Shown here piece after piece: positions 1 to 4,538 of a stretch of DNA of 4,538 nucleotides. Where the stretch lies: the IMG/VR virus record IMGVR_UViG_2541047861_000003. One strand, given 5' to 3'. The position numbers were made by a program, and so were the translations under genes. This DNA comes from a virus. Lineage: Duplodnaviria > Heunggongvirae > Uroviricota > Caudoviricetes > Autographiviridae. Numbering within the stretch: position 1 is the first letter of the stretch; every line of letters begins with the position of its first letter. A model generated the notes under the pieces. That model made no database searches, had not been told where the DNA came from, and saw nothing but the letters and a program-made list of their open reading frames with translations.

Positions 1-98
1 GAGTCTTGAGTCTTGAGTCTTGAGTCTTGAGTCTTGAGTCTTGAGTCTTGAGTCTTGAGTCTTGAGTCTTGAGTCTTGAGTCTTGAGTCTTGAGTCTT
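1..98 (-). repeat. Heptanucleotide VNTR: 14 perfect tandem copies of GAGTCTT (+ strand), i.e. AAGACTC on the coding (-) strand; array is cut by the window start so total copy number is unknown
   Basis: Direct reading: positions 1-98 are exactly 14 x GAGTCTT with no interruption. On the - strand all three frames are open through the array; on the + strand every frame hits TGA (GAG TCT TGA). Confidence 0.98.
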
Positions 99-103
99 AA
101 CAT
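1..103 (-). CDS. neuO: Polysialic acid O-acetyltransferase NeuO, 5' end only (start codon plus repeat-encoded N-terminus); partial, continues beyond window start
   Basis: ATG at 103..101 with AGGA at 114..111 (7-nt spacing). Frame reads ATG TTA then (AAGACTC)n, giving M-L-(RLKTQDS)n. This matches the recalled neuO 5' heptad-repeat architecture of prophage CUS-3. Gene body is not in the window, so identity rests on the repeat signature and genomic context (directly downstream of an endosialidase tailspike). Confidence 0.75.
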   Translation of the reverse strand, partial: MLRLKTQDSRLKTQDSRLKTQDSRLKTQDSRLKT

Positions 104-110
104 ATTAGTA

Positions 111-191
111 TCCTACGTTATTTTACCACTAGTTACTTTTCTTGTCATTAAAAAGCATTTAAATTTTTATATTTAATTTCGTTGACGTCAA
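111..191 (-). promoter_or_regulatory. neuO upstream region: Shine-Dalgarno AGGA (114..111) and candidate sigma70 elements (ATGACA 148..143, 17-bp spacer, TAAAAT 125..120; alternative TTGACG 191..186 with AAAAAT/TAAAAA about 16-17 bp downstream)
   Basis: Hexamer matching by eye on the reverse complement of an AT-rich spacer. The proximal candidate would place the transcript start inside the SD, so the distal candidate may be the real one. No experimental support. Confidence 0.3.
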
Positions 192-256
192 TGTTTTTTG
201 CCAATGTACTTACTTCTTTATGTGATCAGTTCATATTTTTGACGCCAACGAAACAT

Positions 257-3202
257 TTAGTGCTTCCCTTCTATTAAGTCTAACCTAGCTTTTATTCTTT
301 CTATTTCTCTGCGCTGCCATGCTGCCTCGATATAGAATAAGAGATCAGGTCTGACCCCCCATCTAGATCCTGCTGGCGTTATTTCAACGCGCTCAATGAT
401 GTCTTCCATTACCATCACTGGATTATCATCCTCATCAACAATGATGCTCCCGTCATTATCAGTCAGCGGCATTTCCCTTTGGCCAGTAATGACGTCATCA
501 TATACTGCGGGATAATCGTCATAGCAAAGAAAGGCATAGCGGCATGTTGTGCTTTCTTCTTCCATGAGTCCGTGAGAAATAAGAACATCACGAAGTTGCT
601 GCGCGATTACACCATGATGTATCCTCGCCCCTTCTTCCCCCTTTATAGCGACAGCGTTCAGCCATTTATAAGCGATATACCTGACGTCACCCCAGGCATC
701 CAGCAATGTTTCGTCAGGAGAGACCGGCTCTGTCTTTAATGTTCCGTCACTGGTAACCACAGGATTGGAGCCAAGATAAACTATCGAGAACCTGTTTCCC
801 GGACCACCAAGAGCATTTACATTATCAAGATAAGGTTTAACATCTCCGTTCTCAAAAAGATGTTCGAGTGCGTTATATACCGCGCGACGTGGAGTACTGC
901 TTCTGGAACCATGCAACGTTATCATTGCACCATCTGCTGAAGACGTTGTTTCACCGCCGCTAACGATTAATCTCTGAGCGGTAACATCATCAGACGGTAC
1001 TTTCTTCGCAATAATGGCGTAATTACCCTCAAGTTTGACTTCCGCGCGAACTTGTCCTGATGTACCTGCATGGACAGTCAGTGACTGGACGGCAACATCA
1101 TCTGTGAAATCAACGGGTACAGGAACCGTCCTCACGCCTGACGTCGACATAAAAGTAGGAAGCGTTCTGTTAGGAGTGGCTCCGTAGACAAAATCCCTTG
1201 AAACAAATTCTTCCTGTTTAATTTTCACCCTGAAACAATACAAATCAGCCGGGTGACCATCGTGAACATAAGGATATTTTCTGTTGTTATCCCCTATGCT
1301 CCATGGGTTTAGAAAGTCTTCCCCACCGAAAATGTAGTACAGCCAGTTGTCTTTGATACAAACTGAACCAACACCAACCGCAGAGTTAACTATTCCGCCC
1401 TGATAAATCTGATCAGTAACATTAACCCACTCTACATTATCCAGACTCCACTCATTGACGTTAACTCTGGTCATAAATGTTCTTGGATAGTTTCCTGCAT
1501 AACGGTTATCAGGTTCTCCTCCTTCCCACTCACCAAATGCGCGCTCACTGCCAAAAATAATCAGCTCATCGCCAACTTTGGCAAAAGGAAGGTTTGAGTG
1601 ATGAACATTATTTGGGAAGCGAAGAGAATTCCATGATGTACCTAAATCAGAGCTTCTGTGCAATGAACTACCGGGTTGAGTACTTAATGTCCCCCTGGTC
1701 GTCAGATACAGAATGCCATCATAATATTTTACACATGGCTCAGATGCATTCGCCTCATATTCTGCAGGTATGCGTCTGCGAACAAAGCTACCAGGAGAAC
1801 CGAAAGCATCAGAGAAATAGAGTATCCCAAGCTCGCGTGGACCAATATCACCATTATGGTAGCCAACAGCAAAACTGTTATCGCTAATCGTCGCAAAACT
1901 GTGAATCTCAGTAACAGGAGTGCTTCCGTCAACAAAAGAAGGAATAGTTCCAAGACTGGTTTTTCTCCATGGTGACGAGTGAAATGATGTACCAAAACTC
2001 CAGTATCTACCCTCGTTATTCTGATCCACATCCTGGGTATTTTGCGTCGTAACTGTAAAAGTATTTTTATCAATAACAGTAGTCACCGTCATATTCCCGG
2101 TAACACCTGTAACACCAGAGTTTGAGAAGTTGACAAAATCACCAGCAAATAATCCGTGATCAGTAATGCGAATATAAGCGACTTGCTGATTTGCTGCTTT
2201 CGTTATACCACCATAAACGCGAAGGCTGCGACTCATTGGGCGATCCCACAACTCTGCAACCTGCAGTTTATTTCCGCTCACGGTCCGCGTCTCAATTACA
2301 GCAAAAAGGCGATTTCTGACAACCCCCATACTCATGCAGTGATAGTTAACTGTGGGATAGTTTTCATGTAAATCTGTAAGCCATTCCGGCGTTGTCCAGG
2401 TCTTCCCGTCATCTCCTGAGCGAACCCATGCAACATGGAGGTTATTTACACCATGGCGGTCTCCAGCCATAAAAGGCGCATAGATGACATTGTCATATAC
2501 AAACGTTTTATCCTGCGTCCAGGCGTTGTACCACGGTGTATCTGTAATTTTAAATAACTCTCCCTGGATAAAATCTTCAGAAACATAAAAAAGAGGCTGA
2601 CCCGGTATTCTCTCAAATAAAAAACGAGCATTTTTAAATCGACTGACATCTGGAAGAGTTGATACTTTAAAAGTAAGCCCTCGCCCATCTATCTTTTCAC
2701 CACCTGTTGCAACAGAAAGTAATTCTGATAGAGCTGATGTATCATCATGAACACCATCACCAATAGCCCCCCAACCTCTTACATCATAACTGTCTCTCCA
2801 TCTTGCTATCTGAAGTTTTGGGTATTTATTCGCTCCATCTGGGTCTTCTAATTGCTGCCGTAGTTGATCAGGATCATACTTCAGCACATTCTGGAAATAG
2901 AACTGCTGTACGCCATACGCATCGTACACAGCCATAGAATGGCCTTGCACAGTTACGAACTTGGCAATCCGTCCGTTATATACAGGGTAACCAGCAGCGT
3001 TAATGATGATTGGTTGCGAAACAGGAACGTGAGAGCCGTCTTCGTTCTCTACATAAACCTGAATCCGGTTTTCAGGATTTACCGGGTCAGTGTCAATTTT
3101 ACCGATATAAATTTTGCCATTGGCTACGGCTTTAAAAGAACGCGCCATAGTGAAGAGTTGCGAAGGCATCGATACAATCACATTGGCTGTAATGTCTGTC
3201 AT
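257..3202 (-). CDS. Tailspike protein, endo-N-acetylneuraminidase (endosialidase) type, with P22 gp9-like N-terminal head-binding domain and C-terminal intramolecular chaperone domain
   Basis: 981-codon ORF, ATG 3202..3200 with GGAG 8 nt upstream, stop TAA 259..257. N-terminal ~113 aa (MTDITANV...VLKYDPDQ) closely resemble the recalled P22 tailspike N-terminus. Two bacterial-sialidase Asp-box motifs S-x-D-x-G-x-T/S-W are present: SGDDGKTW (aa 262-269, nt 2396..2419) and SSDLGTSW (aa 517-524, nt 1631..1654), both verified against the nucleotide sequence. C-terminal region resembles endosialidase chaperone domains. Confidence 0.92.
260..790 (-). other. Tailspike C-terminal intramolecular chaperone-like domain; predicted autoproteolytic Ser818 (nt 749..751) with Lys823 as partner
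   Basis: Motif [13 protein letters not shown] with Ser and Lys 5 residues apart, followed by ...[10 protein letters not shown]...[13 protein letters not shown]..., resembling the recalled serine-lysine dyad region of endosialidase/tail-fibre chaperone domains. Exact domain boundary is approximate. Confidence 0.55.
2864..3202 (-). other. Tailspike N-terminal head-binding (virion attachment) domain, P22 gp9-like; module junction at the YDPDQ motif (nt about 2864..2881)
   Basis: Similarity to the recalled P22 gp9 N-terminus ends right after ...NVLKYDPDQ; the sequence downstream is unrelated to the P22 receptor-binding domain. Confidence 0.8.
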
Positions 3203-3260
3203 TTAATTTGCTCCAGATGCAAAGAATCGCCGCAGCATGGCCACGGTGAATTTTGGGCAT

Positions 3261-3283
3261 AAAAAAACCCAGCCGAAGCTGGG
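3261..3283 (-). terminator. Rho-independent terminator downstream of ant (between ant and the tailspike gene)
   Basis: On the - strand: CCCAGC-UUCG-GCUGGG (6-bp GC-rich stem, UUCG tetraloop) followed immediately by seven U (+ strand 3261-3267 is AAAAAAA). Lies 19 bp after the ant stop codon. Confidence 0.75.
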
Positions 3284-3302
3284 TCGTTGCGTTGGTTATC
3301 TG

Positions 3303-4205
3303 TCAGTAATTATGTACTGAAGGAGGTAATTCTTTATTCTTAAGTCTCATCCATGCGGAAAGATTCGTTGGTCCGTCTGGCTCATTGATATCAACATCTC
3401 GTGTGTGATTGATTAAAACGTCTCTCGCCATATCGATAATACGGGAGAACTCATAACCGCAGTCATGACATCTGCCGGAATAGTTCGATTGAATTTGTTT
3501 TAGCGCCGGATACAGTTCGCGGAATAATGCCTGTGAGCGGTTGGCATAATCCCATAGCCATACAAGGCTGTTTGCTTCTTTTGCAGAAAGCTCGTTGGTT
3601 TTCTTCTCTTGTTTGCCGATGAACTCACCTTCAAGCACTACCCTGTGGATGTACTCTACTGCTTGTGGTATCTGAGATGCATCAAGCTCTTCAATACTTT
3701 CCACATTGAAACGCTGATGAATCATTGCATAAGCTTCTGGGTACATTAGATGCTTTTTGCTGACTAGCATATTTACAGCATCACGAAGCGGAGTCCTGTC
3801 ATCAACAGATGTTTTCTTCCGTGCATTTGCTGCCTCTCCCTTTGTCCAGTAGTCATGCAGCACAGTAAAGCATTCTTCCTGGTACTGAATCAGTTTATCG
3901 CGGATGTCAGCACGAACTTTCTCAGGGTTGATGCTGAACAGCCATCCATTTAACTTCTTCAAAGGAAGGCAGAGTAGCTTACGAAGCTTACCATCAGCGG
4001 CAACCATGTTCATATGAACACAGTTGAATTTGCTAATCTGCTTCATGAGTTTTGTTTGCTGCGTTGACCAGCTCATTCCGAGGTTTTCAACGATTGGCTT
4101 CATCGCAACATATGCAACTCCGGCAGCCATGGCGGTGATAATTTGCTGACCGTTGAATGGCACGTAAGAGGTGTTCACTGCTTCTAAAATTGCTATACTA
4201 TTCAT
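3303..4205 (-). CDS. ant: Antirepressor Ant (P22 immI-type), 300 aa
   Basis: ORF in the supplied track runs 3303..4271 from a GTG. Preferred start is the internal ATG at 4205..4203 ([21 protein letters not shown]...), with GGAG at 4219..4216, giving 300 aa, which matches my recollection of P22 Ant length and N-terminus. Stop TGA at 3305..3303. Confidence 0.8.
4191..4199 (+). promoter_or_regulatory. Candidate extended -10 promoter (TGcTATACT) on + strand inside the first codons of ant, oriented antisense to ant (Psar-like)
   Basis: TG-n-TATACT at 4191-4199; no good -35, consistent with an extended -10 promoter. Predicted start about 4205-4208, opposite the ant start codon and SD. Confidence 0.35.
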
Positions 4206-4287
4206 GTTGGTTTTTCTCCACGGATTTACCGACAACCGAAGCCCTGACTGTTCCAGCAGTTGGGGCTTCACTGTTTTGATTTCTTTG
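4206..4287 (+). ncRNA. sar: Predicted sar-like small antisense RNA complementary to the ant translation initiation region
   Basis: Candidate promoter at 4191-4199 and a strong terminator-like hairpin 4238-4269 followed by a U-rich tract, delimiting a transcript of roughly 70-80 nt antisense to the ant SD. Matches the recalled arrangement of P22 sar RNA. Prediction only. Confidence 0.4.
4238..4287 (+). terminator. Intrinsic terminator-like hairpin for the antisense (sar-like) transcript
   Basis: + strand RNA GAAGCCCUGACUG-UUCCAG-CAGUUGGGGCUUC forms a 13-bp stem including two G.U wobble pairs, followed by ACUGUUUUGAUUUCUUUG. On the - strand the two wobble pairs become C.A mismatches, so the structure is stronger on the + strand. 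Confidence 0.45.
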
Positions 4288-4443
4288 CCGCATCAAGCAT
4301 CACTTCTGAAAACGTGCGCTTGCCACTGAATACTCTTTCTCTTCTCAATTTTTCGTTCGTGCCAAATGATTCGCCATGAACAAAATTTGGTCTTAAAATG
4401 GTAATCGCAATCTCTTTGACTACTGCATCCAAGCGAATCACAC
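4268..4443 (-). pseudogene. Possible 3' remnant of a gene upstream of ant, truncated by the IS insertion (58 codons open to the IS boundary, no usable start codon)
   Basis: - strand frame reads ...[56 protein letters not shown], with stop TGA 4270..4268 overlapping a GTG (GTGA) in the ant frame. Does not match recalled P22 Arc. An open stretch of this length could also arise by chance (about 6-7 percent expectation). Confidence 0.25.
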
Positions 4444-4538
4444 TGAACCGCCCCGGGAATCCTGGAGACTAAACTTCCTGAGAAAGAGGTAAACAGGATG
4501 ACTAAAAATACTCGTTTTTCCCCCGAAGTCCGTCAACG
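4444..4538 (+). mobile_element. IS3-family insertion sequence (IS629/IS1203/IS3411-like), left terminal region; partial, continues beyond window end
   Basis: Sequence from 4444 begins TGAACCGCCCCGGGAATCCTGGAGAC..., a typical IS3-family terminal inverted repeat starting with TG, followed 54 bp later by an orfA start whose product begins MTKNTRFSPEVRQ, which I recall as the IS629-group OrfA N-terminus. Confidence 0.7.
4498..4538 (+). CDS. IS3-family transposase OrfA, first 13 codons only (partial)
   Basis: ATG at 4498 with GAGG 8 nt upstream; translation MTKNTRFSPEVRQ runs off the window end. Confidence 0.7.
   Translation, partial: MTKNTRFSPEVRQ

Follow-up and report, generated by a model that had tools for sequence, protein, structure and literature searches.

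An IS629 left terminus adjoining the antirepressor side of immI in a CUS-3-like prophage of Escherichia coli K1

INTRODUCTION

When an insertion sequence comes to lie directly upstream of a prophage antirepressor gene, has the gene been silenced, has it been set free, or has the region been taken apart altogether? The question is raised by a 4,538-nucleotide stretch of viral DNA (here called the window) that carries a P22-type ant gene and, a short way upstream of it, the left end of an IS3-family element. An earlier reading made from the letters of the window (the original prediction) placed the IS where arc/mnt-type regulators would be expected, found only a start-less open frame between the IS and ant, regarded the control region as truncated, and proposed that ant is either silenced by loss of its promoter or derepressed by transcription issuing from the IS. 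In P22, the logic of the immI region, to which these genes belong, has been described (PMC2629481, PMC11016777). In the current study, we compared the window with IS-free relatives, searched sequence collections for the junctions, and rebuilt the locus in silico.

RESULTS

Over positions 1 to 4443, the window shows 0 mismatches (100% identity) with the prophage of E. coli S88. Phage CUS-3 (E. coli RS218; CP000711) is 98.5% identical to positions 1 to 3635, a shared region that consists of the start of neuO, the endosialidase tailspike gene and the 3' end of ant; the 5' end of ant and all sequence upstream of it are unlike CUS-3 proper. Because the identity to S88 is full and the CUS-3 match stops within ant, the window is assigned by these alignments to a CUS-3-like, P22-type K1 prophage of the S88 / APEC O1 kind. 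From ant downstream, it carries the following features.

3303..4205, minus strand: ant, an intact P22-type antirepressor gene of 300 aa, identical to WP_001350929.1
3266..3285, minus strand: intrinsic-terminator-like hairpin with a T-run, in the t_ant position between ant and the tailspike gene (terminator scan)
257..3202, minus strand: K1-specific endosialidase tailspike gene (981 aa), located downstream of ant and codirectional with it
103..101, minus strand: ATG of neuO, followed by 14 copies of AAGACTC that run off the window

The ant product contains both P22_AR_N (153 bits; cut-off, 30.7) and P22_AR_C (98.5 bits; cut-off, 22.4), while the tailspike has the Pfam domains Head_binding, End_N_terminal, End_beta_propel, End_beta_barrel, End_tail_spike and Peptidase_S74. 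In phage epsilon34, a terminator is annotated at the position equivalent to that of the 3266..3285 hairpin.

The heptanucleotide array at the other extremity (positions 1 to 103, minus strand) is perfect, reads GAGTCTT in the window as written, and has its first copy two bases past the neuO ATG. It corresponds to the phase-variable VNTR known as poly-psi, which lies in the 5' end of neuO (the gene for the K1 capsule O-acetyltransferase; PMC3046976) and which CUS-3 shares. S88 has 34 copies, and the 14 seen here represent an array that the start of the window truncates. At either end, the window thus terminates inside a repeat, namely the 7-bp VNTR (1-98) and 95 bp of the multicopy element IS629, which suggests that the window is a complete short-read contig. 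This pattern explains why the other end of the IS is missing.

4444..4538, plus strand: left end of IS629 (IS3 family), with the terminal inverted repeat TGAACCGCCCCGGG... and the start of orfA at 4497; IS629 is cut by the window end

The identity of the element and the position of its terminus are clear. All 95 of the 95 bases from 4444 to 4538 align with the annotated IS629 copy in LC567824, with one mismatch (94/95 identical), and the curated feature in that record ("insertion sequence: IS3 family IS629"; 1,310 bp, with a 4-bp duplication) begins at the base aligned to 4444. A terminal inverted repeat that starts with 5'-TG and matches the IS629 left end is present. In the IS3 family, orfA (HTH) is followed by orfB (DDE/rve), made by a -1 programmed frameshift. 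Here, the orfA ATG lies at 4497, after which the window reads MTKNTRFSPEVRQ and stops; the first 14 codons are included, and their DNA is that of IS629 OrfA save for one mismatch at a silent position. The transposase genes of IS629 are antiparallel to the arc-to-ant direction and point away from ant. When positions 3900 to 4538 were compared by BLAST with 5,426 complete E. coli genomes, 57 matched at 100% up to 4443 and no further. Since the IS629 feature starts at 4444 and these 57 genomes diverge after 4443, we conclude that 4444 is a true IS terminus beside an otherwise unaltered prophage. The original prediction was thus correct to the base in its boundary and correct in the family that it named. 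Its distance from the IS to ant also held (238 intervening bases, 4206 to 4443), the ant ATG occupying 4205 to 4203 rather than beginning at 4206.

In S88 and all of the other IS-free relatives examined, what comes after 4443 is a gene of the Arc family that encodes 50 aa (PF03869; 45.9 bits). Beyond it, they likewise have an arc-mnt intergenic region of 114 bp that holds a promoter-like site. The features below are given in coordinates of the S88 locus (L001; window offset, 2101) or of the window.

L001 6691..6539 (CDS 6539-6691): arc
L001 6756..6728: promoter-like site facing arc, TTGACT-17-TATCTT with TG in front
L001 6806-7054: Arc/RHH gene of 82 aa, divergently oriented, at the place of mnt (mnt)
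Window 4443..4438, minus strand: end of arc, with the last sense codon GTG (Val50) at 4443..4441 and the stop TGA at 4440..4438, coordinates transferred from S88
Window 4438..4443 region: CAC or ACAC, probable target-site duplication

The window's own share of arc and mnt amounts to the last codon and stop of arc, and both genes adjoin 4443 in the IS-free relatives. This comparison places the insertion point between codons 49 and 50 of arc, within immI and between arc and ant. That the IS lies inside immI follows because the arc/mnt pair and promoter begin beyond 4443 and are not contained in the IS-free homologue of 4206-4443; the regulators that the original prediction expected at this spot are indeed found directly past 4443 in IS-free CUS-3-like prophages, as arc, a promoter-like site and the divergent mnt. 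The comparison also supports a physical separation of ant from its normal control region, although the region appears to have been displaced and not, as had been proposed, truncated.

The 238 bases that remain between the IS and ant contain two features.

4268..4441, minus strand: orf57, a complete gene of 57 aa that starts with GTG (RefSeq WP_000620145.1) and overlaps the arc stop
4206..4272, plus strand: gene for the antisense RNA sar (Rfam RF00262), whose sequence is complementary to the leader and ribosome-binding region of ant

Hence what lies upstream of ant here should be annotated as a real small gene plus the sar RNA and not as debris. The 58-codon frame noticed earlier exists (4441..4268; 57 codons plus stop), but it is not start-less, the GTG at 4441 being the annotated RefSeq start; this start overlaps the arc stop as GTGTGA. 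The orf57 product matches phrog_17642, a family without assigned function, over its full length (E = 1.3e-43); it has no Pfam family at E<=1 and gives no BLASTP alignment with Arc at E<=100. Given the RefSeq and phrog_17642 matches, together with the lack of a Pfam family and of similarity to Arc, orf57 has a start of its own, and the idea that it is what remains of arc was ruled out (PF03869, the Arc-family domain, is absent from it). The native Shine-Dalgarno region of orf57 (GAGGGGG, inside arc) is now replaced by the IS end.

The intact sar, which the earlier reading of the 238-bp region had missed, matches the full RF00262 model with 83.9 bits (gathering threshold, 43; E = 2.7e-17). It folds into two hairpins (-32.4 kcal/mol; z, -5.7), and a terminator scan places its terminator hairpin at 4238-4269. 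By analogy with phage epsilon34, its promoter, Psar, would be expected at about 4170-4198, inside ant. The GTGA overlap noted between the upstream frame and the ant frame proved to be a coincidence of frame, the ant frame being merely open for 22 codons before the ATG at 4205. A 322-codon, GTG-started "long ant" was set aside as spurious, since its 22 additional codons cover sar and since both the annotation and the Pfam domains run from the ATG at 4205. Finally, a promoter-like site (TCGCCA-17-TAAAAT) was seen inside orf57 at 4371-4399 on the plus strand, directed toward the IS and arc; promoter-like sites in this region occur at the level of chance (2 found versus 2.4 expected).

IS629 is reported to make duplications of 3 to 4 bp and to have no strong target preference (PMC3271280). 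We rebuilt the locus in silico from the IS629 sequence with duplications of 3, 4 and 5 bp. Because the insertion falls at codon 49/50, a simple insertion would leave all 50 codons of Arc in place. In the 3-bp model (CAC), arc reads ...ACG GTG | TGA, such that the terminal TGA of the IS becomes the stop and the native 50-aa Arc is encoded. The 4-bp model yields the 50 Arc residues plus a 53-residue IS-encoded tail, and the 5-bp model yields Arc with a 13-residue tail. A consensus scan found no sigma-70-like site on the ant-ward strand, either in 4444-4538 and the junction or in the whole of IS629; the scan is crude, and weak or noncanonical outward promoters could be missed by it. The antisense RNA of IS629 has stops in all frames and is richer in C than in G (389 versus 318), with many windows in which C/G exceeds 1.5 in a heuristic scan.

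For a simple insertion, the predicted right junction consists of the IS629 right end, CAC/ACAC and CGTTACCCCCTCTC... (the 3' end of arc), and the expected far flank reads IS629 right end, CAC or ACAC, then CGTTACCCC.... The left IS629-prophage junction occurred in none of the 5,426 complete E. coli genomes (BLAST, window 3900-4538), and exact left-junction patterns occurred in none of the genome, viral and metagenome contigs. Similarly, the predicted right-junction patterns, with 3 to 5 bp of duplication allowed, were absent from the metagenome and viral contigs, and the prophages encoding orf57 that a contig search recovered were all either IS-free or otherwise rearranged. At the protein level, exact look-up in a 15-billion-protein collection found neither the Arc::IS629 fusions of the 4- and 5-bp models nor contig-end-truncated versions of the 4-bp fusion, while native Arc is abundant there. 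The absence of these fusions is a weak result and, at most, compatible with a 3-bp duplication.

DISCUSSION

Our data make a simple insertion the explanation that we favor, albeit with some reserve: IS629 would have split arc from ant and left an ant-down prophage in which Arc is kept. The element would have transposed into the 4-base overlap between the arc stop and the orf57 start, within the immI region (the "ant moron"). The genes on the ant side are unaltered and adjoin the IS left terminus, in the order orf57, sar with its terminator, the ant leader, ant, t_ant and the tailspike gene. To judge from the IS-free relatives, the promoter side (mnt, a Pant/Pmnt-like promoter and arc) would now lie some 1.3 kb off, across the IS.

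What would such an arrangement mean for ant? In elements of the IS3 family, the known outward-facing -35 sits in the right end, and it is the left end that faces ant here. Given this, and since no ant-ward promoter-like site was found in IS629, ant would be reachable only by read-through, whether from an arc-side or from a late promoter, over 1.31 kb of untranslated antisense IS RNA. Rho-dependent polarity, which we favor because that RNA is C rich and has stops in all frames, would sharply cut the expression of ant and orf57. In addition, orf57 would be without its native ribosome-binding context, and translation of any remaining ant mRNA would still be blocked by sar, which is intact together with its promoter region. 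Going by the general behavior of insertion sequences and of Rho, the most likely outcome is an ant-down prophage with Arc retained and a polar loss of ant expression. Lysogeny would then no longer need Mnt to hold Ant off, and the antirepressor functions would be lost. Of the two branches left by the original prediction, silencing is thus the one to which these considerations point, whereas derepression, with no ant-ward promoter-like site to drive it, finds no support.

The tailspike gene may fare differently. Late transcripts of P22 run through the ant moron to the tailspike gene (PMC2629481), and the annotation of CUS-3 proper includes a Q-type antiterminator gene. By analogy, therefore, the tailspike gene is probably still served by Q-antiterminated late transcription, and its expression would be kept.

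A more specific version of the simple insertion is that it was seamless for Arc, with a 3-bp duplication and the TGA of the IS serving as the arc stop. This is a tentative suggestion, and on balance a doubtful one; it would make the locus a natural arc+ ant-down allele with Pant-arc autoregulation intact. If it is true, lysogeny of this neuO- and endosialidase-carrying prophage would be locked, in that a failure of Mnt would be unable to break it, and late transcription into the tailspike gene might be throttled.

The most serious competitor to the simple insertion is a rearrangement at IS629 (an adjacent deletion, an inversion or recombination between IS629 copies) by which arc, the promoter and mnt were deleted or moved, leaving a decaying remnant with ant, tailspike and neuO. 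We consider this unlikely on the whole, yet a real alternative, because IS629-associated deletion is seen in a related prophage, L011 (where the IS629 copies have nonmatching flanks and a deletion reaches from ant into the 3' portion of the tailspike gene), and because matching duplications flank under half of the IS629 copies in O157 genomes (21/47; PMC3271280). An IS-bounded truncation in a further prophage of the same type (L008) points the same way. Against this, the position of the break fully fits a clean insertion, and everything that can be seen on the prophage side shows 100% identity to intact prophages. The fact that the partner junction was found nowhere in the collections searched might be thought to favor a rearrangement, but it carries no information, given that none of those collections has the left junction either.

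That outward transcription from the IS left end drives orf57 and ant constitutively, derepressing Ant and destabilizing lysogeny, strikes us as improbable. IS3-family elements are able to activate neighboring genes, as is generally known, and the G-rich IS end (GGGGCGG), located 6 nt upstream of the orf57 GTG, could replace the lost Shine-Dalgarno sequence. However, the minus strand of 4444-4538 and of the whole IS629 holds no promoter-like site, the outward -35 of the family belongs to the right inverted repeat, and translation of ant would still be repressed by the intact sar. Moreover, constitutive Ant would induce the prophage, and such a lysogen should therefore be counterselected. Least probable of all is an assembly artefact in which a contig end was misjoined to a repeat: the repeats at both ends (7-bp VNTR, 1-98; 95 bp of multicopy IS) are a signature of short-read contigs, but the break coincides with the IS629 terminus to the base, as a true insertion demands and as would be rare for a chimeric join.

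A simple insertion would have precedents. IS629 is found in E. coli prophages (Stx and lambdoid, O157:H7); the element here is the same, with 1 mismatch in 95 bp, and the type of event is the same, the annotated example in LC567824 interrupting a regulatory gene of a phage and being flanked by a 4-bp duplication. What sets the present case apart from known IS629 insertions is the site, at arc codon 49/50 of a CUS-3-like K1 prophage, which is absent from the collections searched and of which only the left end is seen here. Likewise, transposon insertions in immI of P22 are classical (e.g., Tn1 in or near ant, giving ant- phages), but those are laboratory isolates of a Salmonella phage, whereas this is a natural IS629 copy in an E. 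coli K1 prophage that lies between arc and ant and not inside ant.

The locus itself has the gene order and strands of immI in P22 and epsilon34 (mnt, Pant/Pmnt, arc, sar and ant, upstream of the tailspike gene). As in P22-like phages, ant has both antirepressor domains, a full-length sar lies opposite the ant leader, and Arc-family arc and mnt genes are carried by the IS-free relatives; epsilon34, in which sar and Psar are annotated, shares 98% DNA identity over the 5' end of ant and sar. Unlike P22 and epsilon34, the locus has an extra 57-aa gene (phrog_17642) between arc and sar and an operon split by IS629, and its Arc and Mnt are divergent from those of P22. CUS-3 proper differs in its ant moron and in the 5' region of ant: it has two mnt-like genes, a different, Cys-rich 67-aa ORF where orf57 would stand, and a sar that is only about 81% identical.

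All of the components are already known (IS629, P22-type ant, sar, Arc/Mnt-family repressors, the endosialidase tailspike and the neuO VNTR), and mobile-element insertions in prophage regulatory regions, P22 immI included, are classical. The allele is absent from the collections searched, yet it is no new kind of system, and its consequence beyond this strain is small. If it is confirmed, the antirepressor would be uncoupled, and the neuO-carrying prophage may be more stably resident or less superinfection inducible; this would be one further case of IS-driven prophage domestication in ExPEC.

Several other, independent IS events were seen in this arm of the prophage in other strains, whose IS-driven decay looks recurrent from the sequences at hand. 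In strain E10 (L002 7137-8350), an IS3-family element lies between mnt and a ClpP-like gene; in L011, IS629 copies occupy 973-2282 and 6707-8013, one of them tied to the ant-tailspike deletion described above; and in phiv205-1 (L003 1484-3805), the tailspike gene is split by transposase genes.

The S88-type ant moron also carries cargo outside the window (L001 7054-8663). A ClpP-family protease gene comes directly after mnt, and there is a YafO-family toxin gene that has a partner ORF upstream of it. In a second variant of the prophage, a SocA/Panacea-domain gene is found instead. One possibility is that these genes beside immI serve in defense or addiction.

CUS-3-type ant morons have been described as apparently lacking arc (PMC2629481). 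Yet in CUS-3 itself (L016, CP000711), the unannotated "bsq2 boundary sequence" at 6505-6986 (minus strand) encodes an Arc-like ORF, MKVKTLRMPEKLEKILEEKAKEECRSFSAEVIKRVLDSLKREGVMV, which contradicts that description. Arc-family genes thus do occur in ant morons of the CUS-3 type.
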